NCBI GenBank assembly: GCA_027317865.1
Contig: DAHVQG010000011.1
Span: forward strand, 32,001 to 96,000
DNA: 64,000 bases
Direction: 5' to 3'
Source of the DNA: Bdellovibrionales bacterium
GTDB lineage: Bacteria; Bdellovibrionota; Bdellovibrionia; Bdellovibrionales; UBA1609
Both the position numbers and the translations under genes were made by a program. Under the pieces are notes generated by a model. The model was not told the origin of the DNA. It did no database searches and was given only the letters and a program-made list of their open reading frames with translations. Positions within the stretch are counted from its first letter, which is position 1. Every line of letters begins with the position of its first letter. This document shows positions 35,801 to 53,971 of this stretch, in pieces.

Positions 35801-36501
35801 GACGCAAGCCACAGATCTTTTTCTTGCAGCTCTTGTTTGAGTTTGCGGTATCGCTCCGCACGCTGAGCTTGCCGCTCGAGGCTTTCGATCTGCCGCTTTT
35901 GTTCGCCGATTATATCTTGCAACCGAATGAGATTTTGGTCGGTTGTTTCGAGTTTACGCTGCGATTCGCGTTTGCGTACCTTGAATTTAGTTATCCCAGC
36001 CGCTTCTTCAATCAGCATCCGGCGATCTTCCGGTTTTGCCGTGATAATTTTGCCAATCGCGCCTTGTTCGATGATCGAAAAACCTTTTGCTCCCGCGCCT
36101 GTATCCATGAAAATTTCTTGAATATCGCGCAGACGCGCCGGTTCTTTATTGATCAAATATTCGGATTCGCCGTTGCGGTGAAGCCGTCGAGTCACTTGCA
36201 CTTCTGTAAAACGGGCATATTGCACTGGAAAAGGCCCGCCATCATTTTCGAGTGTCAATGACACTTCGGCCATGCCCATAGGGGCATACCCTTCGGCACC
36301 GGCAAAAATGACGTCTTCCATCGACGATCCACGCATGTGCTTCGCCGACATTTCGCCCATTACCCACACGAGAGCATCGACAATGTTGGATTTGCCGCAA
36401 CCGTTAGGCCCGACAACTCCAGTAATGCCTTCATCAAATTGTATAACAGTTCGATCTTTAAACGATTTAAACCCGAAGAGTTCCAGTTTTTTGATTCGCA
36501 A
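32893..36501 (-). CDS. smc: Chromosome segregation protein SMC
   Basis: GFKSF, GPNGCGKSN, coiled coils with hinge, LSGGEK, LDEVDAPLD; TTG start. Confidence 0.97.
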   Translation of the reverse strand: MRIKKLELFGFKSFKDRTVIQFDEGITGVVGPNGCGKSNIVDALVWVMGEMSAKHMRGSSMEDVIFAGAEGYAPMGMAEVSLTLENDGGPFPVQYARFTEVQVTRRLHRNGESEYLINKEPARLRDIQEIFMDTGAGAKGFSIIEQGAIGKIITAKPEDRRMLIEEAAGITKFKVRKRESQRKLETTDQNLIRLQDIIGEQKRQIESLERQAQRAERYRKLKQELQEKDLWLASHQFQKLRQDSASAESAHSEAQQAETAALAQVSELEANLSAGRLELAEKEANVQTRQTEHREQLQKTQETEFRIRELNLAIEQARRSNEMTGSMLAQYSLRKENLENERTELSGRLTEAREDLVRLDSDWQTKDAAYSQIVARIQSADRELTEARREMLAIQASLTHLEAREGVLNSRFEEESQKLTQVQTSVAEFLAKKTEFTERRNRVYKTLESERQLQLDHTRDLDLISANLQEVRRQKESRRAENDLLKDELNQVASRLYGLENLQSNFEGFEDGVRSVLMWQRAHHDEGNAADFRPLADVVEVPAQYELAMEASLGTHLQLLLAQSDDQSMGAVDYLKTQKRGRSSFLSVQGAVVEQASTPTVHEVQLKSEPGVQALLHEVVSVPEVYRSQVAHFFDDVVIVDSIRTALRLRSIYPGRSFVTMDGDILSPDGVLTGGASESADSGVLKRRREIKELSLKREELSGKLQLAQLSLKKLEEQAGGLEESFEAAKKTAVEKEIRIAELKKDLERAELELNSAQNAWERETRELQKIESEKDSIQKAQDAVTAELATLKEKMAVSEERVASLTSELDQIRAGVEEKGREVTELKVSAAARRQEVEGLERELMRLEAALSDLQQNISQMSEETTRNSSTLTSSQVEVEQLQTELQKLVHQTSEAELSVAQARDEFENLAAQVRQNEELVSKNHHELRAIQTRINETQLKLEQSRMQESRLLEQIQERYQLDLDSVAQQYTFEPDGEKEAQYLRDVEDLRDKVKRIGEVNLSAIQEYDEVKERYEFLSKQHADLLEAKDNLRKVIERINRICSRRFKDTFEQVNERFQKVFPVLFGGGEAQLTMVEDLESDEPGIDIVARPPGKKAQNVSLLSGGEKALTAVSLIFSIFLVRPSPFCLLDEVDAPLDDANVFRFNDLVKEMAKRSQIIVVTHNKHTMRVNNKLYGVTMQEKGVSKMVSVSLADAEKMAQT

Positions 36502-39142: not shown

Positions 39143-39251
39143 GGCTTCCCTCTTCTCATGGTGCACTGAATTCGCACCGTGCCGTCGCTCCCGTTGACCC
39201 TCTGTGGCTAACATTCGTGCGAAATACAGTCAACCGCGATCTACCTTTAGT

Positions 39252-40067
39252 TTAATTCGGCTCTATCCAAAACCAGTCTATATTTAGGTTGGCGATGTCT
39301 TCGGCTTTTGAGTCCTTAACAAGCTGATTTGCCCGTTTCAAAAAATCCGTAATCTCCTCGCGCAGCTTTTCGAAATCCGACCTTGATATTGAAAATTGCC
39401 CCGAATACATCAACTCGCCATCAAGTAAAGTTTCGCTTCTGCGAATTGCATTGATCCTCCAATTAGAATAGTGCTTGAGCACGTATGGCGACCCGCGCTC
39501 GACAAATGTGCTCTGCACCCCCATCGTATATGTACCGGACCGCTCGATACAAAGCCCGGCACTGACCAAAAATCTCACAATTTCAGCCGCCACATTTTTT
39601 TTAATTCCAAACCTTGCTACAATATCGTCAAGAGTAACTCCCTTTTCGCGAGTCGACGTAAAAAGATGAACGGCGGAGTAAATCCAACTCGAATAAAAAA
39701 CGGCGCGCTCTTGATCGGTCAGTTTTTTTTCGTGCGAAATGCGCTTTGAAAGCTTCAGAGCTTCATTTTTCAACAACACAATTTTTTTATCTAAGTGCCG
39801 ACGAAGCTCAACCGTGCCCGCCCGCTCCCGTTGAATCAAAAGCGAAAAGTATTCCGTCTCAGCTTCTGAATGGGCTAGATATTCACTCAACAACAAGGCC
39901 TGCTCGGGATTGAACTCCCGCAGACCGGACATAATTTGACTAATCAATGTCGTGTTAACCCGCAAATGTTGGGCAATCTTAGACAACTCGCCGCGACCCT
40001 TGCGTGGAAGATGCCGGATATATTGACGAAGGTAGGTGCGATAATCGTTGAATTCAAAAATCGTCAT
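39252..40067 (-). CDS. TIGR02147 family regulator (HTH + DUF4423)
   Basis: IFEF.DYR.YL, N-terminal HTH (IAQHL.V...LISQI.SG.R), FYSSW.YSA, C-terminal LN.D.F. Confidence 0.82.
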   Translation of the reverse strand: MTIFEFNDYRTYLRQYIRHLPRKGRGELSKIAQHLRVNTTLISQIMSGLREFNPEQALLLSEYLAHSEAETEYFSLLIQRERAGTVELRRHLDKKIVLLKNEALKLSKRISHEKKLTDQERAVFYSSWIYSAVHLFTSTREKGVTLDDIVARFGIKKNVAAEIVRFLVSAGLCIERSGTYTMGVQSTFVERGSPYVLKHYSNWRINAIRRSETLLDGELMYSGQFSISRSDFEKLREEITDFLKRANQLVKDSKAEDIANLNIDWFWIEPN

Positions 40068-40095
40068 GGCTGAATTGTACTATAATCAAATATAA

Positions 40096-40113
40096 ATTTA
40101 CAAATTTGTAAAT
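40096..40113. promoter_or_regulatory. Perfect 18-bp palindrome, candidate operator
   Basis: ATTTACAAATTTGTAAAT overlapping the putative -35 (TTGTAA, minus strand) of the TIGR02147 gene; partial copy CAAATTTATAAA about 10 bp further on. Confidence 0.6.
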
Positions 40114-40211
40114 AAATGCAGACCAAATTTATAAAAGAAATCTATCCGTGACTGCTGCGAAGCATTACATTGGCCCTGTAATTGCTAACTCACTAACAAA
40201 GGAGAAGAAAA

Positions 40212-41198
40212 ATGAGCCCCCAATCACTAGCCCGAGTTTTCGGGACGGGAATTGTCACATTGCTTGTCGCCAGTACAGTTGCTTTTGCCGGTGGCGCCAA
40301 CGGTGGCGGCGGCAACCCGACGCCGGTATCAATCGCTAACTCGTGTGACGTATATAATGCCATCAGCGACGCCAAAATGGCGCTGCCAAAACTTGTGCTG
40401 ACCTATTTAAATGATGCACAAGCGAATCCAAATGGCGGAAATTATGACCAAGTCGGGGCGACCCAGCTTTTCATAAAGAACCTAGCCAATACGAAGAACC
40501 GCCTGAATTCGATTCACTGGCAAATCCGCGACAACGGTCTTTGCTACTACATCGACGCCCACGGTAAAAAAATCTATCAAGTGGGTTCCGGCAATCCCGC
40601 TACAAATACGATTTGTTTAAGCGCAGCCGGACTGCTTAAAGACAGGATTCCTGTTCACATTATTCAAGGCAAGGTGCTAGCACTCGCGTTTCGAGAATTT
40701 TCTCATCTGTTAGGCTCAAACGAAGATCAAGCCGCCCAGTTTCAACAAATAGCTGAAGGGTACCTCAACACCTACTCTTATAATGCGTTAGGTGTTTATG
40801 CACACGACTATTTCAGCGTGTTGAATCGCTATGATCACGACACCGAAAGATCAATAAAGGTAATCAACAAAGTGCCCGTTTCAAAACTGGGCAAGGCTGA
40901 AAATTTGGTGCTCGTGAACCTGTGGAGCGACATGGTCGGAATAAATGAAGCCAGTAGCCAAGAATTCGAGGTTGGACTCGATCTCCTTTCAACAAATGCA
41001 TTGCACAAGCTCTATGCCGCCGCAGACATGACAAGCGCACTATCGTCATGCTTAACCAAACCCACTCCAAAAGCCCAATTTATCAAGCAACTCAAAGATA
41101 TCTATCAAACATTGAGTGCCGTGATAAATGCACTGTATCCGCTCCCGCCAGAAACGGTTTCAAGCTCGTGTTCGCCGAACGTTTCGAATTCGAAGTAA
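40212..41198 (+). CDS. Secreted protein with Gly-rich N-terminus and degenerate HExxH (REFSH)
   Basis: AAGGAG RBS, signal peptide ending AFA, then GGANGGGG; I.LS...L....LALAFREFSHLLG..E..A. Confidence 0.7.
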   Translation: MSPQSLARVFGTGIVTLLVASTVAFAGGANGGGGNPTPVSIANSCDVYNAISDAKMALPKLVLTYLNDAQANPNGGNYDQVGATQLFIKNLANTKNRLNSIHWQIRDNGLCYYIDAHGKKIYQVGSGNPATNTICLSAAGLLKDRIPVHIIQGKVLALAFREFSHLLGSNEDQAAQFQQIAEGYLNTYSYNALGVYAHDYFSVLNRYDHDTERSIKVINKVPVSKLGKAENLVLVNLWSDMVGINEASSQEFEVGLDLLSTNALHKLYAAADMTSALSSCLTKPTPKAQFIKQLKDIYQTLSAVINALYPLPPETVSSSCSPNVSNSK

Positions 41199-41220
41199 AA
41201 TTCGATTGAACCCCGCCTAA

Positions 41221-41265
41221 GCGACCATGCTCCCGATTGTTCGAGCATGGTCGTTTTGCATTTTT
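41221..41265 (+). terminator. Rho-independent terminator
   Basis: GCGACCATGCTC / GAGCATGGTCGT 12-bp stem followed by a T-rich tract. Confidence 0.75.
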
Positions 41266-41383
41266 ACGCCTGTGATGCGGCAACTTGAAAAGACGGCGAA
41301 ATTGAACCGGCTAACAATATCCGGACCGAAGTCTATGTGCCGACGGTAATTTGGCTCGAATAAAAAACCGAGAAGCACCAAAT

Positions 41384-43921
41384 ATGCGTGTCGATTTAAA
41401 ATCGAAAATCACAGTCGCCATCGTCTCTTTTTTCGCCTTATTGGCAAGTCGCGCATCTCACGCGAGAACTTCAATGAACCTCGATAGTGAAACAGCCGCA
41501 CAGATTTGCACGAATTGCCTCGATTCGTCGACTTCCGACCAGGGCTCACCACTCGCCTCACGCAACTTAGAAATGTTGAAAAACACGACAAACATCCTAC
41601 GTTTGGATATTGCTAAGAAAACCAGAAACCATTGTGAAAACATTGTTGAATCGCGATCGTGTCGAAACTTGTACGCTGAAATACAAAAAAATCACCATAA
41701 CCCGAACCAATACAAACGCACCTGCACCGAACAGGCACCAGGCCAAACCTCAAAAGAGACGTTGCAATTCGTCGAAACTATTTTTTTAGGTACTGAGAAC
41801 CCCGTTCGAAAAAAAATGCGTGAAACTGAGAGGCACTTTTTTGTCGGCTTCGGCAGGGCCATCTATCGTGGCACAGTGGGCTTTGCGGTGAACGTTTACA
41901 AAAATTATGAGGCGGCGCGCGTGTGCGATCACAGCATCACGGATAAAAAACGGTTTTTTTATAATTACAACGCTAATCGCCCCAAAGACCTGCAAGTGAA
42001 GCTGCCGTCTCTAGCATGGTTCAACACCGAAACATGCTCAGGCGTAGAGGGTTATATCCAAATGATGGGTACAGAACTTTACACTCACAAGCTTTCTAAA
42101 GAAGGGGTGAAATTTAAGAGCGTTGGGAGCGAAATTCCGCATGACATTAAAACAATTTCAATTGGTGTATACGATCAGGCAAAACAAGAGCTGAAACGAT
42201 TCCACGTCAAACTGGAGTGCTACAATTCACAAAAACGGTCAGAATTAATCGGAGCCGCCGTAGGGATGATCGCACTCAATGTCACGCCGGTTGGTGATGC
42301 GAAAAAAGCTGAAGAAATAGCTGAGATTGCCGGCGTCGGTGAAAATATCGTCGTAGACGCATCGACTGTTAGCGAAGATGCCGCCAAGGCAGAAGAGGCA
42401 TCCAAAGCGGCCCCAATAACGACAAACAGTGCAACGGTTGCCGCGGCCTCTGCGCGAGAAAAAGAAATTTACTCGATACTCAAAGAAATGAATGAATTAA
42501 AACATCAGCCCGCTTCTGCAGAAAATCTGAAAAAATTGAAAGAGCTTAACGACAAGGCAATCCAAATCACAGCTGAAGAATTAAAGACTCGCGGCATTAG
42601 CTTCAAAGTCGTCAATCCTAAAGCAGGTGGCGGTAATTTCATGCATCTGGATGCTTTGCAAGCAAGGCAGAAAATTTTGATTCAGCGAGGGATTGAAATG
42701 GAGCCCGACATAAAATACCTCCGATCGCTAGAAGAAACACGCGCCAAATATCGTAAGCTTTTAAGCGACACAACGGTGAGAAAACAACAGCTCGCTACTG
42801 AAATCGAGGATACAGGCAAACAACTCGATAAGCTAAGCGCTAAGGGATCTGAATATGACAAAAAACTACGCCAAGTCTTAATTGAAAGGCGCAAGAGATA
42901 TTCCGATTTATACCGTGAATTAGATCGCAATCAGACTGATATTAAAATGCAACTAGAGAAAACCGAAGCTGAGGTTGGGCGGCAACAGAATAAAATAAAA
43001 GAAATGGCCAATGCGCCTTTTGCTCCCGTGTTAAAATCATCTGAGCTGAAATACGTGCACACTTGGAACAATCCTTACATCGTAATTACGCCATCACCGA
43101 CAAATCCTAAATTTCTCAACGCAGCAATAGAAAAATACAATACTGAAATCGTAATTTCGCCAAATTTTAAGTCGGCGGACCCAAAAATTTTGGGCGGCAT
43201 TTCCCGTTCGAATCGCGCTGACGAAACTGTATTTATTTATCCAATCGAGCAGGTTTTCGCCAAAGGATCGATCGTCAGTGAAACCGCCAAGCACGAAGTG
43301 GTTCACTTAAAGTTGGGCCAATTACGCTCAGTCGGACACGAAACGCCGTACAATGTCGAAATCACAGCTCATAAGGGTGAGAAAATTCCAGGATCATCAC
43401 TAGGACTTTACGACGATTATATGTCTTTCGAAGAAATGGCGACGTGGAATCGAGATTTAAACTCGGCCAAAAAAAGTCATCTCACGGGAACAACAAATAC
43501 CGCCTATAACTTCGATCAGGGCATCTTTAGGCAGGCCGGCGGCACAGCCACGCAAGTCCAAAATGCGCGTGCTTTAAACCATCTCAGTTATTCAGCAATC
43601 AAAGCCGTTAGGGCCGCGCGTGAATATCTCGATACCGCCGATCCGGCAGATATTCCAATCACCATTAAGGGAGTGGATGGAGCAGGAACTTCAACTGTAA
43701 CAGTACCGTATCTCACCCAAGGGCGTGAAATCGGCAAGATTAAAATCACGCTTGTTAACTTAACAAAAGCAAATAAAGACGATGCCGTTAAACTCGCACA
43801 AGAATACCTCGATCGCGTCGAAGCTCGCGCCAAGGTTCACGGCACTAAAGCATTAAACATTATAAAAGCGCACCGCAGTGCCATTCGCGCAAAAGCGTGG
43901 GTACCGGTTACGCCAAACTAA
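41384..43921 (+). CDS. Large secreted protein, polymorphic-toxin-like, C-terminal HExxH domain
   Basis: Signal peptide, Cys-rich N-terminal part, hydrophobic GAAVGMIALNVTPVG.AKKA segment, coiled coil, HEVVH...EE. Confidence 0.6.
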   Translation: MRVDLKSKITVAIVSFFALLASRASHARTSMNLDSETAAQICTNCLDSSTSDQGSPLASRNLEMLKNTTNILRLDIAKKTRNHCENIVESRSCRNLYAEIQKNHHNPNQYKRTCTEQAPGQTSKETLQFVETIFLGTENPVRKKMRETERHFFVGFGRAIYRGTVGFAVNVYKNYEAARVCDHSITDKKRFFYNYNANRPKDLQVKLPSLAWFNTETCSGVEGYIQMMGTELYTHKLSKEGVKFKSVGSEIPHDIKTISIGVYDQAKQELKRFHVKLECYNSQKRSELIGAAVGMIALNVTPVGDAKKAEEIAEIAGVGENIVVDASTVSEDAAKAEEASKAAPITTNSATVAAASAREKEIYSILKEMNELKHQPASAENLKKLKELNDKAIQITAEELKTRGISFKVVNPKAGGGNFMHLDALQARQKILIQRGIEMEPDIKYLRSLEETRAKYRKLLSDTTVRKQQLATEIEDTGKQLDKLSAKGSEYDKKLRQVLIERRKRYSDLYRELDRNQTDIKMQLEKTEAEVGRQQNKIKEMANAPFAPVLKSSELKYVHTWNNPYIVITPSPTNPKFLNAAIEKYNTEIVISPNFKSADPKILGGISRSNRADETVFIYPIEQVFAKGSIVSETAKHEVVHLKLGQLRSVGHETPYNVEITAHKGEKIPGSSLGLYDDYMSFEEMATWNRDLNSAKKSHLTGTTNTAYNFDQGIFRQAGGTATQVQNARALNHLSYSAIKAVRAAREYLDTADPADIPITIKGVDGAGTSTVTVPYLTQGREIGKIKITLVNLTKANKDDAVKLAQEYLDRVEARAKVHGTKALNIIKAHRSAIRAKAWVPVTPN

Positions 43922-43955
43922 CCCCGCCGTCGAACTGCCGGCCATTGCGCCAGCC

Positions 43956-44153
43956 TTAAATTTTCGGCGCAATATCAACTTCGAATTTCGGTGCCATTCG
44001 GGAGCAAGTTCGCTCGGCTAAATTTTCGCTCCGTTTGGAGTGCGACTCAAAGTAAATGCCGTCGTAAACTCTTGCCATTGCGCACGTCATGCATTTTGAA
44101 TACGAGAACGTTCGAGCAAGACACGATATCTGATCGTGCTGTAATAATACCGC
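43956..44153 (-). pseudogene. 3' remnant paralogous to the end of the 46112-47185 gene
   Basis: Reads AVLLQHDQISCLARTFSYSKCMTCAMAR...FEVDIAPKI*, preceded by in-frame stops. Confidence 0.7.
43965..44104. repeat. 140-bp direct repeat, copy 1
   Basis: Matches 46121-46260 with 2 mismatches. Confidence 0.95.
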
Positions 44154-44373
44154 TCAATTTTTTATTTTAAATTATTGAGCACCAAAAAATCTCCGGACTG
44201 AGCAAAGATAAGATCGCGTTCATACACACAATTTCAAACACCGCCAAACTTTGTCACCATTTCGGAAATTATTCCTTATTTTGGAAATATCCACATCGAT
44301 GTATTATTCGGCCTCGCTATTGAAAACATAACCGCTCGGCTCGCGCCGATGCTGATAAATGACGGAGGAAAAC

Positions 44374-45666
44374 GTGAACAATTCAATTAAACTTTTGTTG
44401 ACTGCTGTTGCAACCTCGGCGTTGTGCGCTTGCACGCCGCCAAGCCATAATGGCATCACCCATCAAAGTAGTAGCATAATTAAGCTTAACGCCCAAGAAG
44501 TGAAAAACAATCCCAGCCTAAGTTCAAAACAGAAAGCCGAAGAACTCGCCCGGATCGGTGAGCAACTTTTTACTCCAACAGGATTTATGTACGCCCAGAC
44601 ACTATTTAATCAAGCGCTACAACTCGATCCGCACAATTTACTCGCTCAGTTTTATAAAAATTTAAACGGAATCAACATGACCCTTCGAGGGATGATGGTT
44701 CGAATCAAACCTATGATTGTCACGCCTAAAGACCGAGCAAACTATAAAAATGTATTAGCGCACGTCCCCAACAGCGCGCTTAAAACGTTTTTATTTGATG
44801 GAACTCCAAACATACGAGATTCAAAAGACGTTCAGGCCTACGCCGATAATCTATATGCTGCCCTTGAACGCTTACGCGAGTTTCTAAGTGCTCATAAAAA
44901 TTCACACCTCACACTTGATCTTAACGACTGGACATTATGGACCGGTATCCATAGGGCAAAAGAAAAGTGTATCGCCTCGAAAGTCGGCGATACCGGTTCT
45001 TACAGTTTAACCAATTGCGATTATACCCATGCACTACAGGTCAATCTAAACCGTGCAGATTTCGAAGGAATGCAGCAAATCGTAGCTGGAGAAGAAATAT
45101 ACTTTGCAGCCCTTAACTCTTATAATCTAACCGGCTCCATAAGAACCTCCAGAAAATTTCAAAATCAAAATGTTTCTGACGCCGTTATTTACCGAGAGCT
45201 TTCTAAATACCCCGAGTTTGCGACTCTCCGCACACCAATCTACTTGAGACATATAGAAAAGCTTGGAGTTGATGCGATCGCCGCCATTCGTTGGGCCAAA
45301 TCATTGCAAAATAAACTTTGTTCAACGGGCACCCCCAACCCTAACAATCGACCGGGTTATCTATTTGATTCGGGCTTTTGCATTGGCGAAAAAACCGCCG
45401 ATGGCCGAAGCGTAAATGGAATTCTTAAAACGGCCGAGCTCATATTAGCTGGCGTGCCGTATAGCGTACTCGTCAACAACGTTTACCCGACTGTCATAAC
45501 ACCGACAAAATATTTAAATAATCCGATTGTGGATTTAAAAAAGCTTGATCCCGTGTTTAATAGTTGCGGTCTTATCCAGAGAGTCTCTGACGTTACGTTA
45601 GGCGGCATATTCCCCGATCACGATGCTAACAAAGTGTTGTCTATTACGTCCAAATGTCAGTACTAA
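44374..45666 (+). CDS. Lipoprotein with N-terminal TPR-like motif
   Basis: GGAGG RBS + GTG; ALCAC lipobox; A...F.QAL.LDP.N..A.FY. Confidence 0.7.
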   Translation: MNNSIKLLLTAVATSALCACTPPSHNGITHQSSSIIKLNAQEVKNNPSLSSKQKAEELARIGEQLFTPTGFMYAQTLFNQALQLDPHNLLAQFYKNLNGINMTLRGMMVRIKPMIVTPKDRANYKNVLAHVPNSALKTFLFDGTPNIRDSKDVQAYADNLYAALERLREFLSAHKNSHLTLDLNDWTLWTGIHRAKEKCIASKVGDTGSYSLTNCDYTHALQVNLNRADFEGMQQIVAGEEIYFAALNSYNLTGSIRTSRKFQNQNVSDAVIYRELSKYPEFATLRTPIYLRHIEKLGVDAIAAIRWAKSLQNKLCSTGTPNPNNRPGYLFDSGFCIGEKTADGRSVNGILKTAELILAGVPYSVLVNNVYPTVITPTKYLNNPIVDLKKLDPVFNSCGLIQRVSDVTLGGIFPDHDANKVLSITSKCQY

Positions 45667-46055
45667 AAATGATATTCTACCGTAAAACCTTATCCAAAGG
45701 AGCAATTCTGTTCCTTTGGATTTTCTATTCAAGCTTAGGAAACGCGACACCGAGATACACGGCTTCAGCAAAGTATACCGGATTTAAAATGCTCACTTGT
45801 CGCCGATCCGACAATAATTGTATGCAGATTAAGTCGCCTGTGGCTTATGTAAACGAAGAGGGTTCGGCATACGCCTTTGACCAAGCGGAATTCAGTTTTT
45901 TTAAAAGCGGGTCAAAACGTCGCAAAATAATCTCTGGACGCGACATATATTACGACCAGAAGAACAAAATGATTTTAATCCGCCATTTACTTTCAAGCCG
46001 GCACAAACAGGCGTTCATTAATTTGCGGACCGACCACATTACATATGTCGACTAA
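45654..46055 (+). CDS. Small hypothetical exported protein
   Basis: Overlaps the upstream stop, hydrophobic signal segment. Confidence 0.5.
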   Translation: MSVLKMIFYRKTLSKGAILFLWIFYSSLGNATPRYTASAKYTGFKMLTCRRSDNNCMQIKSPVAYVNEEGSAYAFDQAEFSFFKSGSKRRKIISGRDIYYDQKNKMILIRHLLSSRHKQAFINLRTDHITYVD

Positions 46056-46111
46056 AGGTGGTTCTTTCGCTTCCAAATTTTTGCCGTAATTACTCATCCC
46101 ACAAAACTCGA

Positions 46112-47185
46112 TTACTTCACCGGCGCAATATCAACTTCGAATTTCGGTGCCATTCGGGAGCAAGTTCGCTCCGCTAAATTTTCGCTCCGTTTGGAGTGCG
46201 ACTCAAAGTAAATGCCGTCGTAAACTCTTGCCATTGCGCACGTCATACATTTTGAATACGTGAATGTGCGCACCAGAGCCGACTGTGGGTCGCGTCTTAA
46301 AAGCGATTTGCGTCTTCTTTTATCAAAAAATTTAAAATATCTCTCACTGGTGTACGAGACTGCGGTATAGGGTCGAACGTCTCGGCGCAATTGTTTGAAG
46401 CTGGTGGCTTTAATTGTCCCAACCTTTTCGCCTATATGACGAAACATTGGCCGCGATAATGGCCATGCAAACTGCGAACAAGAATAAACAATATCGTGCT
46501 CTCCGCCTGTCCGAACGGTCTTGGGCGAATGTTTTAAAAAGCCGGATTTAAAACTATCGGCATGCAAAAATTCATGAAAAAGTGTGACTCTGAAATCCAG
46601 AGCCTCTAATTTGTTCACGCCCTGCCGCGAACTGCGATTCACGGATGTCGCGTCATTTGTATTCAACAGATCCAGCACAAGTGCGCCGAGATTGATTGTT
46701 TTTTCTCCGAAGAAAAAAAAGTGACGCATCGTAAAAGATTCTGTTCCAATTGAAGCTAAAAAATGCGTGCAAACGAAGCGCAAAGGCACGGCATACGCAT
46801 TACTGAAAAGGTCGGCGGCATATTCCGGATTTAAAATCGAGAGCCGCGCGATCGATTCGTAAAGCACTCGCGGAATTAAATCGGCAAGTCGCGCGTTAAA
46901 TTCGCGATTCGCCGGCACGGACGTAACCCCCATAGCTCGACGAAAATTTGCATTCGCAAAAAAATCTTGCACATCGCACTCGTAACTGTAATGGGGCAAT
47001 TGCCGCACGAACTGCGAATACGTCGGCAAACTTTCAGCATGGCTACGGGTAGCCCCAAATGCCAATCCGGATATGTCGCCAAGGCTAGAGGCCGCGCCAA
47101 AGACAAGCGCGCAAAAAATGACCCATCTAGCAATTCGCGCAAAAACACTTTTCAAGCGCGCCTCCGAAATTAAAACCGAAAACAT
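46112..47185 (-). CDS. Secreted HExxH (zincin-like) protein
   Basis: Signal/TM segment; TLFHEFLHA.....H....D.VY.C; Cys-containing C-terminus. Confidence 0.65.
   Translation of the reverse strand: MFSVLISEARLKSVFARIARWVIFCALVFGAASSLGDISGLAFGATRSHAESLPTYSQFVRQLPHYSYECDVQDFFANANFRRAMGVTSVPANREFNARLADLIPRVLYESIARLSILNPEYAADLFSNAYAVPLRFVCTHFLASIGTESFTMRHFFFFGEKTINLGALVLDLLNTNDATSVNRSSRQGVNKLEALDFRVTLFHEFLHADSFKSGFLKHSPKTVRTGGEHDIVYSCSQFAWPLSRPMFRHIGEKVGTIKATSFKQLRRDVRPYTAVSYTSERYFKFFDKRRRKSLLRRDPQSALVRTFTYSKCMTCAMARVYDGIYFESHSKRSENLAERTCSRMAPKFEVDIAPVK
46121..46260. repeat. 140-bp direct repeat, copy 2
   Basis: Matches 43965-44104 with 2 mismatches. Confidence 0.95.
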
Positions 47186-47472
47186 AAGCTACCCGTCTCC
47201 GGCCAGCTTCTGCATAAATCAGCTTCTGAGTATACTCAGCCTCTGTATACACTCCCCCATCGCAGCTCGAAATAGAGTTTGAAAATGTGAAACGACTGTC
47301 TAAATTTTGACTGTCAAAAATTTAAGCAGTCTTAGAAAAAATTCTCTGTTCGTTTTTTTATCTAACACCGCCGTGTGAGATTGGATTATCTTGTGAGGCA
47401 GTTTGAAATCAGGTTCGTGTGGCCACTAAAGGGAATGAACCCTACCACGCGGAACGAATCGAGGGTAATTTC

Positions 47473-47817
47473 ATGAAGAACGCAAGCAAGATCGCAAAGA
47501 TTCTCGCAGTAAGCTTGGCCGTAATGAGTTCGAGTTACGTATTTGCGGGAGTGTTAACTCCACAGTTTTCGGCAGGTTTATACGCAAATCATTTGTCGCT
47601 CGATTCGAGCGCGTTTGGTATACCGGCGACCGAAAGAGCGATGCAAATCGGTAAAAGCGCCGCTCTCGCCGCTGCGAATGCCGTTTGCGAAAAAGACGGC
47701 CTCACCCTGGATCAATCCCCTCGCGGTAGCGACGTGGTATTTACTCTTAAGGGCGGCAGTTCAGAAATTTCTTCGACCGTTCAAGCCGAAATTTATTTCA
47801 ACTGTGTCACCCGCTAA
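47473..47817 (+). CDS. Small secreted protein
   Basis: GAGGG RBS, signal peptide ending YVFA, two Cys. Confidence 0.65.
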   Translation: MKNASKIAKILAVSLAVMSSSYVFAGVLTPQFSAGLYANHLSLDSSAFGIPATERAMQIGKSAALAAANAVCEKDGLTLDQSPRGSDVVFTLKGGSSEISSTVQAEIYFNCVTR

Positions 47818-47838
47818 ATATTTTTAATCTTGTCGCGC

Positions 47839-49188
47839 CTAAAAACTGCGCAATTTTTCGCGCACGTATTCAGAAAGGCGCGACATTTCGACGCGATCTT
47901 GCGTCATCGTATCGCGATGGCGCACAGTCACTTTTTTATCGTTAAGCGATTCGAAGTCGACAGTTAAACAAAGCGGAGTGCCGATTTCATCTTGCCGTCG
48001 ATAACGTTTGCCGATCGAGGCGGTCTCATCATAGTCAACTCGAAATTCTTCGCTTAAATCTTGGCGTATTTTAAACGCCGTCTCTTGTAAATCCGGCTTT
48101 TTCGATAACGGCAAACAGGCCACTTGGACAGGAGCGAGAAACGGTTTCAAGCGCAAGACGACTCGCGAATCTCCATCGCCTTCACCGCCAGCGCTCGCAA
48201 GCTTTTCTTCTTCAAAAGCGTTGCATAAGATCGCGAGGCAAAGCCGGTCGCATCCCACCGCTGTTTCAATGACGTATGGGACAAACCGTTCTTTCGTCTG
48301 CTCATCAAAATACTCAAGTTTTTTACCGGAAAATTTAGAGTGCTGAGTGAGATCGAAATCGGAGCGATTGTGAATCCCCTCCAATTCTTGCCAACCAAAC
48401 GGAAATTCATATTGCACATCAAATGCCGCTCGCGCGTAGTGCGCCAATTCTTTCGGCCCGTGCTGATGAAAACGTAGCGAAGACGGCTTAAATCCGAGGC
48501 GCGCATAATGGGCTAGCCGCGTTTCTTTCCACTTTTCAAACCATTCCATATCTGTGCCCGGCTTGACGAAATATTGCATTTCCATTTGTTCAAATTCACG
48601 GGTGCGAAACGTAAAATTACCGGGCGTAATTTCATTGCGAAAACTTTTGCCGATTTGCGCGATCCCGAACGGAATTTTCTTACGCATGCTGGTCAGTACG
48701 TTTTCATAGTTAACGAAAATCCCTTGGGCTGTTTCAGGCCGCAAGTACACGACGGCCGCGGCATCTTCGACCGGCCCCATAAATGTCTTAAACATTAAGT
48801 TAAAATTGCGCGGTTCTGTGACTTCGGTTGAACCGCAATTAGGGCATATTGTTTTACCATTTTTTTGCGGAGCCTGATCTTGACGAAAGCGTGTCTTGCA
48901 CGCGCGGCAATCGCACAACGGATCGGTAAACCCGTCGATATGGCCTGACGCCTTCCACACCATCGGATGCATAAGAATGGCCGCATCGAGGCCGACAATA
49001 TCAGGTCGCCTCGTCATGGTCTTCCACCACGACATTTTAACATTAAATTTGAAATCGGCGCCAAGCGGGCCGTAATCCCAACAGGAATTGAGCCCACCAT
49101 AAATTTCGGAACTTTGAAAAACAAACCCGCGTCGTTTGCACAGACTGACTAATGTTTGCAGATCTTTGAGTGGAGTAATGGTCGACAT
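47839..49188 (-). CDS. glyQS: Glycine--tRNA ligase (alpha2 type)
   Basis: [55 protein letters not shown]. Confidence 0.97.
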
Positions 49189-49281
49189 TGGCGCGGATCC
49201 CTTTCAAGAATTTGACTGAATATGACATCGGGCAAAATCGCAGTCAACGAATTGCTCGGTCACATCTGCGCGCAATGACCT

Positions 49282-49401
49282 TTATGTTTGGCAAACCTCA
49301 CTTTTGCGGTTGGCCGGAGGACCAGTCGGCTGCGCACTTTTCGAATAAGCACCTGCCTCTGTGACTTTGAAGTATGCAAGTGTAACGATATATTTTCTCA
49401 T
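49282..49401 (-). CDS. Possible 39-aa small ORF or gene remnant
   Basis: AAGGAG 6 nt before ATG; MRKYIVTLAYFKVTEAGAYSKSAQPTGPPANRKSEVCQT*. Confidence 0.35.
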   Translation of the reverse strand: MRKYIVTLAYFKVTEAGAYSKSAQPTGPPANRKSEVCQT

Positions 49402-49510
49402 AAACGGCTCCTTTCGGTTAGCACGTCCTCGTTACAAGCATAGAATATATTGGTAGTGCGATAGATATTTGAACGTCGTGTGGAGTGTTCTTAACAGCGC
49501 AACTGTTGAA

Positions 49511-50035
49511 CTATTTTACGGTACAAAGTCCGATTTGAACAAAGTCTTTAAGAACCCGCTCGGCTTCGCTCCGGCTGTTATAAAAAGTCCCGGTATCGTG
49601 ACGCCCTTGTACGATTTTGAACACATCGTCGTCTTTTTGAACAAGACATTTTGGCAGCCGCCTCGGCACACGACACGCCTGCGCCTGAATCATATCGTTG
49701 CGCTCAGCCCCTGCGTCGTTCACGTCGCTGTAAAATACGCCGGTGTCGTGATGACCTTGAAAGATAAAAAAAACACCGTTACGCGCAAGAATGTTACATT
49801 CCGGTAAAACGGCAGGCGGCCTGCACTCGCCCCGTGCAACTAAGCGATCACGCGCCAATTGCGCTGATTGAACTCGGTCGTAATACGTATTGTTCGCGAC
49901 GCCGTCTTTCTCTACAAAAAACACCCCGTTTGTCCCGACTATGGTACATATCGGTACGGCAAACGCCTTTAAAGCTAAAAGCGCGGCAGCTAAATAAACC
50001 GTTATAAACAAAAATCTCGATTTCATGAATGTCAC
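49511..50035 (-). CDS. Secreted protein with three ~49-aa Cys-bracketed repeats
   Basis: AAGGAG RBS (may serve ATG 50026), signal peptide ending AFA; P.C......VF.....G.....Y.....A.........C x3. Confidence 0.75.
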   Translation of the reverse strand: MTFMKSRFLFITVYLAAALLALKAFAVPICTIVGTNGVFFVEKDGVANNTYYDRVQSAQLARDRLVARGECRPPAVLPECNILARNGVFFIFQGHHDTGVFYSDVNDAGAERNDMIQAQACRVPRRLPKCLVQKDDDVFKIVQGRHDTGTFYNSRSEAERVLKDFVQIGLCTVK

Positions 50036-50086
50036 TCCTTTAGATCTTGGCCCGACCCTACAACGCGACTAGACTGGCCGAACAGT

Positions 50087-50114
50087 TAAATATTCTTAGT
50101 CGTCGAGCCGATAA
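50087..50114 (+). promoter_or_regulatory. Sigma28-type promoter upstream of the HD-domain gene
   Basis: TAAAT-N15-GCCGATAA with a perfect -10 octamer. Confidence 0.5.
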
Positions 50115-50123
50115 GTTCTTACA

Positions 50124-51551
50124 ATGGCCGAACAATTTAAGCGCACAATATTTGACACTCTTCACGGCCACATCGTACTGAACCGGGTCGAGTCGCGAAT
50201 ACTCGAATCAGCCTACTATCAGCGATTGCGGTGGATCCGCCAACTTGGGTTTAGTTTTTATGTCTTCCCGGGGGCGACTCACACCCGCCATGCTCACGCC
50301 CTGGGAGTGCTCCACGTCATGCACCGAATATTGCAAGCGACCGGACTTGCCGTCCCGGACGAAAAATTTTTTTCCACTAAAGTAGCGGACGAGAAAACAA
50401 ATTTTCACCGTATGATGCGGCTTGCGGCCATGCTCCACGATATTGGAACCCTGCCTTTTTCGCACACCATTGAAATTGCCTACATCCAACACCATCGCGA
50501 GCAACAACGGGTCAAAACGCCGAAGTACACGGCTAATCACGAAACTCTTGGCAGTCACCTTATTTTAAATACCGATTTCGAAGGCGGTCTTACGCGCATT
50601 TTGATCGAAGAGGGTATCGACCCGGAAATGCTTGCGACCATCATCGCCGGGAATTCAAAAAATCTAGTCGCCAATCAACTCATGCATTCCGACGTCGACG
50701 CCGATCGAATGGATTATCTTTTACGAGACGCCTATTTCACCGGCGTTCGGCTTGGCGTCTACGACATTGATTTTCTTATTCGCAGCATGACCGTTTATGA
50801 AGACGGTCAGGACCAAATTTTATGCATGCGCGAAGACGCGATGACCGTTGTCGATTCATTTCTTGTCAGCCGCTATTTTTGGTATTCGCAAATTATCAGC
50901 GACGGTACAAGCTACAAATTCGATCTCGTCGCCGCAAAAATCTATCAGTATTTTCTCGAAAACGGGCTCGCCTACTCGTTTGATCAGTTGGTCGATAAAG
51001 TGTCGCAAAACCCAAACGAATATTTTACGTTCAACGATTCTTATTTTCTTGCCAAACTCCACGAGTATTTAGCCGGTCGTATCACCCACCCCATGATTCG
51101 CGAATTGTCTGAAATGCTTGCCAATCGCATCGCTCCCGCACAGGTAAAATCGGGTCCGGTGCGGCCGACACTTGTACAAAGTGACGAACACAGAAAAGAA
51201 TTGGTCGCAAGCGTCACCCGTGCCGCCGAATGGCTTCAAAACGAAATTCGATCGGTCGACCCAAACGCATGGATGATTTTTGACATTCCACAACGTGATG
51301 TGATTTTTACGAAAAATCTCGACCGTTGCCAGCGCGAAGCAAAAGGCGGCGACGTCCATCGGTTGCGTGATCCGGCAAAAATTCTCACGCGCGACAATCA
51401 GATTAAACTTATTGTCGAAGTTCCAAATTCGTTGATGTCGATCTTAAGCCAATACCGAAACTTCTTGCCGCGAATATATATCAGCCCGCTTTTGTACGAG
51501 CGGCTTGAAAAGAAAAAGATTTTCGAAAAGATGGCTGCGACTAAATTCTAA
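50124..51551 (+). CDS. HD-domain phosphohydrolase, dNTP triphosphohydrolase (SAMHD1/YdhJ-like)
   Basis: D.LHG.I, QRLR.I.QLG, GA.HTR..H.LG, LHDIG..PFSH, HE, DADRMDYL.RD. Confidence 0.88.
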   Translation: MAEQFKRTIFDTLHGHIVLNRVESRILESAYYQRLRWIRQLGFSFYVFPGATHTRHAHALGVLHVMHRILQATGLAVPDEKFFSTKVADEKTNFHRMMRLAAMLHDIGTLPFSHTIEIAYIQHHREQQRVKTPKYTANHETLGSHLILNTDFEGGLTRILIEEGIDPEMLATIIAGNSKNLVANQLMHSDVDADRMDYLLRDAYFTGVRLGVYDIDFLIRSMTVYEDGQDQILCMREDAMTVVDSFLVSRYFWYSQIISDGTSYKFDLVAAKIYQYFLENGLAYSFDQLVDKVSQNPNEYFTFNDSYFLAKLHEYLAGRITHPMIRELSEMLANRIAPAQVKSGPVRPTLVQSDEHRKELVASVTRAAEWLQNEIRSVDPNAWMIFDIPQRDVIFTKNLDRCQREAKGGDVHRLRDPAKILTRDNQIKLIVEVPNSLMSILSQYRNFLPRIYISPLLYERLEKKKIFEKMAATKF

Positions 51552-51617
51552 GTGACGGTTTTTGCCGCCATCTTGCCCGAACAGTGAAAGATCTACCCGT
51601 TTCATAGGCCCAATTCC

Positions 51618-51642
51618 TATTTGAAACAGTTTGTTTCAAATA
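51618..51642. promoter_or_regulatory. Perfect 11-bp inverted repeat, candidate operator
   Basis: TATTTGAAACA-gtt-TGTTTCAAATA just upstream of a putative TTGCGC -35 of the second TIGR02147 gene. Confidence 0.6.
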
Positions 51643-51683
51643 AATTTGCGCCCAACTTGCGCCCTGTACTACAGTCGCCGCCA

Positions 51684-52577
51684 ATGAAACAAACGGCACC
51701 GGCCAAATATAAATATTTACTCGAACGCGAACTCGTTCGACGTTGCGACGCGAACCCACGCTACTCACTACGGGCGATGGCCCGGGCCTTGAGATTGGCA
51801 CCCGGCGCGCTTTCGCAAATTTTGTCAGGCAAAAGAGTCCCCTCCTATAAAGTCGCGCAAAAGATTTTGACGTCCCTTGAACTCACCCCCGCCGAGCAAC
51901 GCGAGTTCGTCGAGTCACTCGCAGCGGTACAACGGTCGCGCGGTCTTGAGCGCTTAAACCCGGAGTTTCGGGTCAAAACTAAGGCCAACGATACAGGCAA
52001 GGGTGAAGACGTCGAACAACATAAGACCGCATTGAAAAAGGCGGCGAAATTGCGCGAGTTCGATAAAAACATGCGCTCACCAAAAGATTTGAGTCTCGAG
52101 CTGTTTCGCGTGATAGGCGATTGGTACCATTACGCCATCTTGTCGCTGACATACGTAAAAGGTTTTGATCCGAATCCGAACTGGATCGCCGCTCGGCTCG
52201 CCATTACTCCCCTTGAGGCCAAACTTGCGGTTGATCGCTTAATTGAGCTGGGCTTACTGAAATATAAAAACGGCAAACTCATTTGCTGGGAGGACTATTT
52301 TACGACGGCCGACAAACACATTACGAACTCGGCGCTTAAGCGCCATCACAAACAAATATTAAATAAATCACTTTATTCAATGGAAAACGACCCCATCGAA
52401 ATACGCAACCACTCCTCGATGACCATGGCGATCGACCCGGCCAAAATCGACGAAGCTAAGAAAATGATCGAAGAATTCACGCACCGTCTTACTGAGTTTT
52501 TAGAATCAGGCAAGCGCCTGCAAGTTTACGAATTAAATATAGGTTTATTCCCCTTACAAATAAGGAGCAACACATGA
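51684..52577 (+). CDS. TIGR02147 family regulator (HTH + DUF4423)
   Basis: NPRYSLRAMAR.L.L.PG.LSQILSGKR, F.VI.DWYHYAIL.L, WIA.RL.I, S.ALK.HH.Q, TMAID, VY.LN..LFPL. Confidence 0.9.
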   Translation: MKQTAPAKYKYLLERELVRRCDANPRYSLRAMARALRLAPGALSQILSGKRVPSYKVAQKILTSLELTPAEQREFVESLAAVQRSRGLERLNPEFRVKTKANDTGKGEDVEQHKTALKKAAKLREFDKNMRSPKDLSLELFRVIGDWYHYAILSLTYVKGFDPNPNWIAARLAITPLEAKLAVDRLIELGLLKYKNGKLICWEDYFTTADKHITNSALKRHHKQILNKSLYSMENDPIEIRNHSSMTMAIDPAKIDEAKKMIEEFTHRLTEFLESGKRLQVYELNIGLFPLQIRSNT

Positions 52578-53914
52578 AGCCACTTAATAAAATCGCGACA
52601 GCATTTGCCGCAAAAGCCTTTTGCGCGGCTGCCGTCTCGAGCGCAATTTTTGCTTGCGCAACACTCGTTAGCATCCCCGCCTTCGCCGGAGGCGCCCATG
52701 CCGGCGACGGCGTTTACGTCAACGGCCAGCTTAAGATGCGCGACTTTATTGAAACCAATAAAGCGAACGGTCTCGCCACAGGCGTTCAAAACAACAAAAA
52801 ATTTTTAGAAGACATGCCCGGCTTCATGCCGCTATTTAAAGAAATTGCGGCAGCCGATCCGGTTTTTGCCTTTGAGATCTGGAAGCAACTCAACGACGTG
52901 CGAATTTGGCTGATCCCGTCGAAATTACCGCTTTTGCCACTCGCCGACACGACCGTTGTGGGACCCAATCCCCAAGTACAAATCGCCATCCACTACAGCC
53001 ATGATATTATGATTTCAACGACGGCGTTGGCGCAATTGCCGCCAACGGAACGTCCGTACGAAATGATACACGAAGCTCTCCACGGGCTCATCCGCGGTAA
53101 TGGCCCGATACATGAGATGCGAGTCATGTTTATGACAAAATGGCTGCACGATCACCGCGGCCACTACACGACGGCGACTCTTGACGACGAACTCGCTCGA
53201 GTTGGAGTTAAAGATTCTAATTTCGCCATTGACAGCGCGGATATTTGGCATCTCAACGACTTCAACCGAGTGTTGTCTATCTATCTGCAACAGCTCGGTA
53301 CAACACAATCGTTGTGTCTATTGCGACAAACTCTCACCAAAGTAATGGATTATAATGTGAGTTTTATTGCATCTCTTTACGGTCCCGATAACTGCCCGGC
53401 TCAAGATCAAATCTCCGCGATCAAATCCTTTTCTCCGACCCTTGCTCATTTGTTAAACCAATTCGCTCCTTTTGATATTTCGAGCGACGTTTCAGGCGGA
53501 AATGTTCAGACGAGCAATATCGACATTGACGATCTCAGTCAATGGACGCCATCAAAGGCTGCTTGTCGTAGCAACGCGAACCCTGCGTTGAGTGGGACGA
53601 TCGAATCCGCCATATTAAAATATCAATCGTTAATTGCTCTGGCAAAGCAAGGCAAAAGAGTCCTGAATCGCATTCACAAGATGTTATATAGCAATTATAC
53701 ACAAGACCCAGCGCAAGTTGCAGCGGTCTATCTTTACATTACCGTGCCGCCTTTGCAGGGACTATTCGGTCAGTACTATACCCCCATAACTGTTAACCAC
53801 TTAAACAATCTCATTACAAAGTCACAAGAAATGATCAGCGGCCCCCTTGCGACCGCACAAGAATATCTAAAGAACAACATCACAATTTGTTTAAATAAAT
53901 ACGATCAGTACTAA
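52574..53914 (+). CDS. Secreted protein with Gly-rich N-terminus and HExxH motif
   Basis: AAGGAG RBS, ATG overlapping the regulator stop; signal peptide ending AFA then GGAHAGDG; QIAI....I.I......L......MIHEALH. Confidence 0.72.
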   Translation: MKPLNKIATAFAAKAFCAAAVSSAIFACATLVSIPAFAGGAHAGDGVYVNGQLKMRDFIETNKANGLATGVQNNKKFLEDMPGFMPLFKEIAAADPVFAFEIWKQLNDVRIWLIPSKLPLLPLADTTVVGPNPQVQIAIHYSHDIMISTTALAQLPPTERPYEMIHEALHGLIRGNGPIHEMRVMFMTKWLHDHRGHYTTATLDDELARVGVKDSNFAIDSADIWHLNDFNRVLSIYLQQLGTTQSLCLLRQTLTKVMDYNVSFIASLYGPDNCPAQDQISAIKSFSPTLAHLLNQFAPFDISSDVSGGNVQTSNIDIDDLSQWTPSKAACRSNANPALSGTIESAILKYQSLIALAKQGKRVLNRIHKMLYSNYTQDPAQVAAVYLYITVPPLQGLFGQYYTPITVNHLNNLITKSQEMISGPLATAQEYLKNNITICLNKYDQY

Positions 53915-53936
53915 GTATTGTGAACCCATTTTAGCC

Positions 53937-53971
53937 GCGCTCCTAAATTTTTATTTAGGAGCGCGCATTTT
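53937..53971 (+). terminator. Rho-independent terminator
   Basis: GCGCTCCTAAAT / ATTTAGGAGCGC perfect 12-bp stem, short T-tract. Confidence 0.7.

Follow-up and report, generated by a model that had tools for sequence, protein, structure and literature searches.

What do the TIGR02147/DUF4423 proteins, one of the most expanded regulator families in predatory Bdellovibrionota and one without known function, control? The question arises from a 64,000-nt stretch of a Bdellovibrionales bacterium genome (assembly GCA_027317865.1, contig DAHVQG010000011.1, positions 32,001 to 96,000 of the forward strand; hereafter the window, whose numbering is used throughout), in which two genes for such regulators each stand beside a gene for a protein with a signal peptide. 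An earlier reading, made from the sequence alone, had described a single architecture present twice between 39252 and 53914, composed of a palindromic operator, a regulator gene and a gene for a secreted zincin-like effector. We found that the pairing of regulator and secreted partner is genome-wide and lineage-wide in Bdellovibrionota, and that two cassette types exist, coupled (type 1) and divergent (type 2), one of each being present in the window.

Two cassettes in the window

In cassette B an inverted repeat at 51618..51642 (TATTTGAAACA-GTT-TGTTTCAAATA; palindrome B), the presumed operator of the regulator, precedes the gene for regulator B (51684..52577, + strand), a type-1 protein of 297 amino acids (aa) with an XRE-type helix-turn-helix (HTH) and a DUF4423 domain. 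The gene for partner B follows directly (52574..53914, + strand; 446 aa, predicted signal-peptide cut after A38), and the two open reading frames (ORFs) overlap by 4 nt (ATGA), so that they are translationally coupled. In cassette A, regulator A (39252..40067, − strand; 271 aa), a TIGR02147/DUF4423 protein of type 2, is encoded divergently from partner A (40212..41198, + strand; 328 aa, predicted signal-peptide cut after A26). The two genes share the 144-nt region between them, and here lies palindrome A (ATTTACAAATTTGTAAAT, 40096..40113), the presumed operator of regulator A.

All four ORFs, both palindromes and the 4-nt overlap of cassette B were found at exactly the positions given in the sequence-only reading. 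Its description of the same architecture occurring twice holds for the module of regulator and secreted partner, which recurs, but not for the arrangement of the genes, divergent in one copy and coupled in the other, nor for the operators, whose skeletons differ. It also had both partner genes end in a strong terminator. Stable hairpins with U-rich tails do follow partner A (41215..41259, + strand; −25.4 kcal/mol, z −5.76, then GUUUUGCAUU) and partner B (53934..53965, + strand; −23.6 kcal/mol, z −5.25, then CAUUUUGG), and none of 200 shuffles folded as stably as either, but a strict terminator scan listed neither hairpin, their tails having only 4 T in the 8 scored bases.

Regulator and secreted partner recur as a pair

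The host genome (2.65 Mb, 99% complete) contains 11 DUF4423 matches. By our own ORF calling, a gene encoding a signal peptide with an A-x-A end and a Gly run adjoins 10 of these 11 DUF4423 genes; nine of the pairs are immediate neighbours, and at C39:14920 (contig and position) the partner is the second gene away. The lone regulator without a Gly-motif neighbour (C38:74924-75838) is a divergent DUF4423 subtype with a long N-terminal extension, and the small HTH gene downstream of it is convergent, on the opposite strand. A strict regular expression (regex) for signal peptide plus Gly run matched only 12 of 2397 ORFs, 10 of which adjoin DUF4423 genes; it missed partner B, and its two other matches were an unrelated lipoprotein and a membrane protein. 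The densest arrangement is found at C4:43769-49312, with two DUF4423 regulators, one per type, and three Gly-motif secreted genes in 5.5 kb.

The same pairing was found well beyond this genome. PF14394, the Pfam model of DUF4423, is present in 36 of 41 related genomes searched, with a maximum of 32 matches per genome, in line with the expansion in Bdellovibrionota named in the sequence-only reading, and in 20 regions from 16 related genomes most regulators again had a Gly-motif neighbour of this kind. We then considered 80 loci from named genomes, all with type-1 regulators and all from Bdellovibrionota or from metagenome-assembled genomes with vaguer labels. A hidden Markov model (HMM) of the regulator located the central regulator in 70 of the 80, and 61 of these 70 had a same-strand gene at most 60 nt downstream, often with a 4-nt overlap. 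By a loose definition of signal peptide plus Gly motif, 54 of the 61 downstream genes qualified, compared with a background of about 9% (53 of the 558 remaining ORFs at the same loci and, in this genome, 205 of 2397 ORFs); a partner-family HMM matched 33 of the 61. In a separate search of 201 genomes of the order, six of seven weak matches to partner B were encoded directly downstream of a DUF4423 gene. Gly-motif partners are therefore far above background next to DUF4423 genes, as the sequence-only reading had expected if its module was real, and the counts within the genome and across the lineage bear the module out. Full-text literature searches found no description of the pair, and DUF4423 itself turned up in the literature searched only as a table row: in the available part of one article, Bd3700, labelled 'DUF4423 domain-containing', is among the proteins up-regulated during growth in prey (PMC12546842).

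Regulators of two types

Both regulators are plain members of TIGR02147 ('Fsuc_second')/DUF4423 (PF14394), a family without assigned function. As had been proposed, they exceed the curated cut-offs of both models, with 59.3 bits for regulator A and 94.6 bits for regulator B against TIGR02147 (cut-off 50), and 58.6 and 138.4 bits, respectively, against PF14394 (gathering score 30). The HTH of regulator B matches HTH_3 at 25.6 bits (cut-off 23), and that of regulator A, for which only a weak HigA-type match was obtained (E 0.0039), aligns over the same region. By alignment the 11 regulators of the genome split into two types. Type 1 is marked by NPRYSLRAxAR...LSxILxGKR (NPRYSLRAFAR in the members of this genome) and has its partner coupled downstream (regulator B, C37, C4:44686 and C40:27356), and type 2, which comprises regulator A and five others, is marked by an N-terminal FxFxDYRxYL...KGRGE and has its partner divergent.

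When two copies of regulator B were modelled with a 66-row custom alignment, a homodimer formed through the C-terminal part of the protein was predicted. The interface is symmetric and involves residues 218-294; the interface score (ipSAE) was 0.64 (0.64, 0.79 and 0.63 in three runs), with 0.00 for the best of three controls, and the runs had at least 75% of contacts in common and a partner pLDDT (predicted local distance difference test) of at least 62. In calibration, 20 of 30 proteins with structures solved as pairs and 1 of 23 solved as single chains reached the mark for this score, counts that are approximate given the custom alignment. A symmetric dimer of this kind would fit a palindromic site, to which the regulator presumably binds.

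Private palindromes with shared skeletons

The sequence-only reading had given each regulator a palindrome of its own, and each palindrome indeed occurs only once in the genome (2.65 Mb), even with 2 mismatches allowed for palindrome A and 3 for palindrome B. At the level of the skeleton, sites of both types are found elsewhere. The type-1 skeleton, that of palindrome B (TTTGnnnCA-N3-TGnnnCAAA), has two copies in the genome, both directly upstream of type-1 DUF4423 genes (regulator B and C37), and it also occurs at several loci in other families; the palindrome-B half-site stands upstream of the type-1 regulators of loci L091 and L119, and the helix motif ALSQIL is common to them. The skeleton of palindrome A (type 2) can be written as ATTTAC-N6-GTAAAT, or as TTAC(A/T)-N4-(T/A)GTAA. 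It is found in other genomes ahead of type-2 regulators at L010/L112 and L049/L050, and imperfect type-2 palindromes at L037 and L039 lie beside the closest relatives of regulator A.

Perfect inverted repeats are enriched ahead of these regulator genes. In this genome, repeats with arms of 9 to 14 lie upstream of 4 of the 11 regulators, whereas the genome background is 31 of 834 upstream regions for arms of at least 9 and 12 of 834 for arms of at least 10, three of these 12 belonging to DUF4423 genes. Among 100 fetched loci with 94 regulators and 638 other genes, perfect repeats spaced by 3 nt with arms of at least 7 were found upstream of 27 regulators compared with 44 other genes, and those with a CA-N3-TG centre upstream of 20 regulators compared with 10 other genes.

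Across families, half-sites pair with particular recognition helices (TGTCACA with EASPLS..LRGKR, TGGTACA with VPSALSD, and TGAAACA with ALSQIL). For 27 distinct regulators, the partial rank correlation of half-site similarity with helix similarity, given the rest of the protein, was 0.23, a value reached by 80 of 2000 label permutations, and the converse partial correlation was 0.01. The co-variation of HTH and palindrome that the sequence-only reading had put forward as a check is thus present, but it is modest and orthology has not been fully removed from it.

The region between the genes of cassette A contains a further element, (G)ATAGATTT-N3-T.A.(G)TAAA on the regulator strand at about 40125-40150, which recurs in the type-2 intergenic regions of L049, L050, L052, L053, L061 and L064. 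Lying between type-2 regulators and their divergent neighbours in many genera, the ATAGATTT element could be a promoter or a site for a shared factor.

Promoters and a sigma-54-type element

A sigma-70-like promoter candidate for regulator A was identified at 40074..40103 (− strand; TTGTAA, 18 nt, TACAAT), and its −35 hexamer falls within palindrome A. On the other side of the intergenic region a sigma-54-type −24/−12 element (TGGCCCTGTAATTGC, 40171..40185, + strand) ends 26 nt before the ATG of partner A. Of the six partner genes of type 2 in this genome, four have the form TGGC-N3-G-W-AATTGC ending 22-26 nt upstream of the start codon, the other three elements lying in the upstream regions at C40:9295, C39:18568 and C39:55070, and all correspond to the sigma-54 −24/−12 pattern at canonical spacing (TGGC-N7-TTGC). 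This general pattern occurs 248 times in the genome, where about 81 are estimated by chance, and 48 of the occurrences lie 5-120 nt upstream of an ORF.

The genome also codes for a sigma-54 apparatus: there are 15 strong Sigma54_activat matches, and the core-binding domain (Sigma54_CBD) matches at 199 bits at a contig edge (C22:3-560). The sigma-54 DNA-binding domain was not found in the genome, presumably because the contig end cuts the sigma-54 gene. The element of the type-2 cassettes is mostly absent from those of other genera and therefore looks like a genus-level rewiring. At L037 the match has a spacing one nucleotide too long and ATGC for TTGC, and near-matches were seen by eye in L053 and L058.

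We also noted a CCGATA(A/T) box 10-20 nt before the starts of many type-2 regulator genes of other genera (L038, L040, L041, L043, L044, L046 and L058), with none at regulator A; it is reminiscent of a sigma-28 −10 element.

A divergent family of predicted exported partners

Export of the partners was judged from sequence only, by their signal peptides. In both, as the sequence-only reading had noted, the signal peptide ends in AFA and a Gly-rich motif comes directly next, the N-termini reading VAFA/GGANGGGG in partner A and PAFA/GGAHAGDG in partner B. Partner A has the motif GGANGGGGN, then REFSH (161-165) within an alpha/beta domain, and a four-helix bundle at its C-terminus; partner B carries HEALH at 166-170 (H166-E167-x-x-H170), in helix 157-172 of its model. 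Beyond these features the two proteins have diverged widely. BLASTP of A against B produced an alignment limited to the signal-peptide end and the Gly run, and the likeness of the two is visible only at profile level. All-against-all comparison of the partners with BLASTP and phmmer likewise left most paralogs without significant similarity, linked only by profiles. Searches of Pfam and NCBIfam gave no match for partner A or partner B; a word-index search returned, near-identical copies aside, one relative of partner B and four of partner A; and 60 other genomes of the family contained no ortholog of partner A but for one weak match. The ESM Atlas gave weak leads only, with feature scores of 0.85-0.86 to Bdellovibrionota clusters and template-modelling (TM) scores below 0.3 to clusters of M48, DUF2201 and M1.

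A family profile was built from the first 260 residues of 17 partners, and its two invariant columns are H166 and E167 (partner B numbering). Run against 1.84 billion representative proteins, it matched 5878 clusters at E ≤ 1e-3, of which 1904 remain at E ≤ 1e-10 and 46 at E ≤ 1e-30; against the sequences of the PDB, no match fell below E 0.1, nor even below E 0.2. In an alignment of 150 sequences, consisting of partner B and the best 149 profile matches, H166 and E167 are invariant (150/150). Conservation reaches at least 90% at G43, G44, D57, E60, K87, A138, R140 and L163, and also for one Arg and one Phe in columns aligned near residues 185 and 192. The family consensus reads A-F-A / G-V-G-N-G-G-D-G ... 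Y-L-L-D-L-V-E ... Q-L-A-x-R ... H-E-x-x-Y-A-L ... S-x-x-A-R. As candidates for a third metal ligand (a downstream Glu, His or Asp), partner B has H180 and E181, which stand 10-11 residues past H170 in columns that are mostly gap or Ser in the family. A hydrophobic-HExx helix was found in 30 of the 61 downstream partners of the named loci, where it ends in His (15), Tyr (10), Trp (4) or Arg (1). The model of a putative phage metallopeptidase, PF18894, gave sub-threshold matches in 12 of 53 relatives, exactly over the strand and the helix. We rejected the possibility that a His in the Gly motif acts as a latency 'switch' paired with HExxH, such a residue being present in 3 of 8 HExxH members and in 32 of 126 HExxY members.

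The proposed correspondence of REFSH in partner A with HEALH in partner B, each with its preceding strand, was recovered in the same register by profile-profile comparison: hhalign placed TICLS...LAFREFSH of the partner-A profile onto the strand and HE helix of the family with a probability of 60.8% (E 8.2e-5). The segment LAFREFSHLLG is invariant in all five sequences available for comparison (partner A and four relatives, 37-75% identical). Partner A lacks the first His (R161) and so cannot bind zinc canonically; REFSH is not a canonical zinc site, and the protein is probably not a canonical zinc enzyme. Partner B, in which HExxH is intact, may be an active metallopeptidase.

Predicted fold of the partners

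The AlphaFold2 (AF2) model of partner B has a pLDDT of 85-96 at residues 70-210 and is poor elsewhere, including the helical C-terminus. Its putative zincin-like domain spans approximately residues 45-210. The best Foldseek match was selecase, at E 0.09, and structural alignment of residues 69-200 with VIA-align gave AsaP1 at Z 5.5 (root-mean-square deviation 4.2, 110 aligned), followed by deuterolysin, the VgrG2b metallopeptidase domain and SPRTN (5.4), selecase (5.3), abylysin (5.1) and jannalysin (5.0). About 15 zincin entries were found at Z 5.5-4.3, and the rows over the partner-B domain are essentially all zincins. These matches weakly suggest a zincin-like fold for the N-terminal domain of partner B. 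The AF2 model of partner A (pLDDT 66) consists of helices, a small sheet, a short helix, the long REFSH helix and then the four-helix bundle, which is the same order of secondary structure as in the partner B model.

The zincin-like effector of the sequence-only reading can thus be retained, weakly, for partner B (Z 4.3-5.5), but not for partner A, which lacks the first His, and no peptidase family scored above its cut-off. Partner B resembles the zincins, among them the 'minigluzincins' selecase, abylysin and jannalysin, the aspzincins AsaP1 and deuterolysin, and SPRTN/Wss1, in its helices, small beta-sheet and HExxH helix. It is unlike them in that its Z scores are only 4.3-5.5 and no sequence model matches, and most of its family has HExxY, while partner A has RExxH. 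To our knowledge, a conserved Gly-rich mature N-terminus and near-invariant D57, E60 and R140 are not features of known zincin families.

A proposed mechanism and its rivals

We favour, as a probable account of both copies, a local regulator that is autoregulated, has an operator to itself and controls a gene for an exported protein. An XRE-type HTH/DUF4423 regulator would dimerise via its C-terminal part and bind one palindrome by its own promoter, and the bound regulator would control itself and the adjacent gene. The product of that gene, from a large family that evolves fast and has no model, would carry a Sec signal peptide, be exported and have a Gly-rich mature N-terminus (G-x-G-N-G-G-D-G), and its alpha/beta domain would resemble a zincin and bear the invariant His-Glu on what would be the 'active-site' helix. 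Regulator and partner of cassette B would lie behind the operator as a single bicistronic unit with translational coupling. In cassette A the palindrome overlaps the candidate promoter of the regulator, with the putative sigma-54-type promoter of the partner about 60 nt away. A DUF4423 protein has no AAA+ (ATPase) domain and therefore partner A should need a separate activator; its transcription would then also depend on an enhancer-binding ATPase, and the DUF4423 protein would serve as a local modulator or autorepressor. The analysis establishes the order of the genes, their motifs, the enrichment, and the palindromes as unique and conserved; DNA binding, the direction of regulation, export with its cleavage site, and any enzymatic activity are what we infer here.

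Several observations weigh against this account. On the side of the operators, a perfect palindrome was found at only 27 of 94 regulators (imperfect ones fall outside this count), and the covariation of half-site and helix, besides being modest, is confounded by orthology. The three sigma-70-like sites in the regulator-A region equal the mean of 3.0 in shuffled sequence, and the promoter scan of cassette B found no clear promoter. The sigma-54 regex matched 1 of 30 type-2 loci, which is that of this genome itself, and a protein without an AAA+ domain cannot itself activate a sigma-54 promoter. On the side of the partners, every structural match of partner B is middling, lying below Z 8, the level that the fold search calls clear, and the fold searches with partner A gave matches only to its C-terminal helix bundle and did not reach its N-terminal domain. 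Partner A joins the family only at the hhalign probability of 60.8% given above. Pfam cut-offs were passed by none of 53 relatives and NCBIfam cut-offs by none of 33, with no peptidase model among them. At the position of the second zinc ligand Tyr predominates (126 of the 150 aligned sequences), Phe occurs in 11 and His in only 8, and most members therefore cannot be classical zincins.

The partners might be exported binding or structural pseudo-zincins, in which the His-Glu pair and the Gly N-terminus serve folding, ligand binding or sorting, with the regulator-operator part of our account unchanged. HExxY or HExxF in 137 of 150 members, the REFSH of partner A (invariant in 5/5) and the lack of any peptidase model above its cut-off all point that way, as does the greater constancy of the Gly motif, present in 54 of 61 downstream partners compared with only 30 of 61 for the hydrophobic-HExx[HYW..] helix. 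The strict invariance of His and Glu (150/150), on the other hand, is what a catalytic pair typically shows, HExxH is retained in 15 of the 30 helix-bearing partners, and 12 of 53 relatives show sub-threshold likeness to PF18894 over the strand and helix, so that we regard pseudo-zincins as an unlikely outcome, albeit one with a real chance. Far less credible is a circuit in which the zincin-like partner cleaves the XRE-type regulator and thereby switches the cassette on. In ImmR/ImmA of ICEBs1 and in DdrO/IrrE an XRE repressor is co-encoded with a zincin protease, and the gene order is alike here, with an XRE-type HTH regulator followed by a co-transcribed HExxH-type gene in one operon. Unlike those systems, however, the partners have signal peptides with an A-x-A end, in both cassettes of the window and in 54 of 61 cases elsewhere, which would place protease and regulator in different compartments; there is no Peptidase_M78 (COG2856) or other Pfam match, most family members lack the second His, and the regulator has an extra DUF4423 domain. 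We judge cleavage of the regulator by its partner to be highly improbable.

Two other rivals concern the control of the genes. Palindrome A might serve a sigma-54 enhancer-binding protein as upstream activating site and not be a DUF4423 operator: the centre of the palindrome is located some 70 nt ahead of the −24 element, which is a typical enhancer distance, and the genome has 15 strong activator-domain matches. Palindromes of like skeleton nevertheless occur at L010/L112 and L049/L050, whose partners lack the sigma-54 element, and the paralogs each have a different, genome-unique palindrome, which a shared activator would not give; an enhancer site is accordingly a poor prospect. We also think it very improbable that the genes are adjacent only by inheritance, with no direct control of the neighbour and with regulators that act mainly on distant targets. 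Such a history would agree with the limited share of regulators that have a perfect palindrome (27/94), but it is at odds with operators that have no second copy in the genome, with the ATGA-overlap coupling common in the 61 close-downstream pairs, and with a pairing that has been kept across families though the partners diverged beyond BLAST recognition.

Known systems and significance

Apart from the XRE/zincin pairs considered above, the cassettes invite comparison with two other arrangements. Like the controller (C) proteins of restriction-modification systems, the regulators are HTH proteins predicted to dimerise, with a palindrome just upstream of their own gene and a co-transcribed target. 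They are unlike C proteins in being about three times larger, in having a DUF4423 dimerisation domain and an exported target, and in forming many paralogous cassettes with half-sites of their own. In Listeria, XRE regulators control a secreted metzincin and a TIMP-like lipoprotein, and there too, according to the available part of the report, XRE-type regulators stand beside a secreted HExxH protease gene (PMC8235301). Neither its protease family nor its regulator architecture is related to those described here, and the Listeria locus is, in that same part of the report, a single locus of phage origin and not a paralogous array (PMC8235301).

The cassette gives two uncharacterised families a role that can be tested at the bench, namely that of a dimeric local regulator with a private palindrome and an exported zincin-like target. 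The partner family comprises thousands of predicted exported proteins for which there is no curated model, and the pairs of operator and recognition helix are a ready set from which to derive a code of DNA recognition. Any partners that prove to be active hydrolases released in predation would be candidate prey-degrading enzymes; should most turn out to be HExxY proteins of a different chemistry, they would represent a new use of the zincin scaffold.

A more far-reaching scheme can be drawn from the same data, and we put it forward only as a speculation that is more likely to be wrong than right by a wide measure. It would be an array of one regulator to one effector, with about 10 to 30 cassettes per genome, private operators, and half-sites co-varying with the helix. 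The Gly N-terminus would be a lineage-specific tag, the partners a new exported class with a zincin-derived His-Glu(-Tyr) site and non-canonical chemistry, and part of the array would be wired to sigma-54 in this genus. If true, such an array would enable predatory Bdellovibrionota to use their secreted effectors independently of one another, for instance according to the stage of predation or the kind of prey, and the Gly tag, which recurs on otherwise unlike partners, might serve sorting, activation or metal binding.

Neighbouring genes

Downstream of partner A the window encodes a second secreted protein (41351-43921, + strand) of 856 aa, which has no Pfam match and carries HEVVH around residue 648. 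Paralogs of this protein are encoded at C40:29243 (approximately 41-43% identical, likewise directly behind a partner gene) and at C42:50639. We considered this protein as a further member of the cassette and rejected it, only 2 of 12 loci with relatives adjoining a DUF4423 cassette. Between the two cassettes an ORF of 357 aa (46112-47185, − strand) has a hydrophobic N-terminus and HEFLH, and gave no match to Pfam, the Gly motif or the partner profile. On the far side of regulator A, an ORF of 915 aa (36467-39214, − strand), which by eye we take to be pyruvate, phosphate dikinase, starts 37 nt downstream of the regulator on the same strand, and regulator A may be co-transcribed with it.

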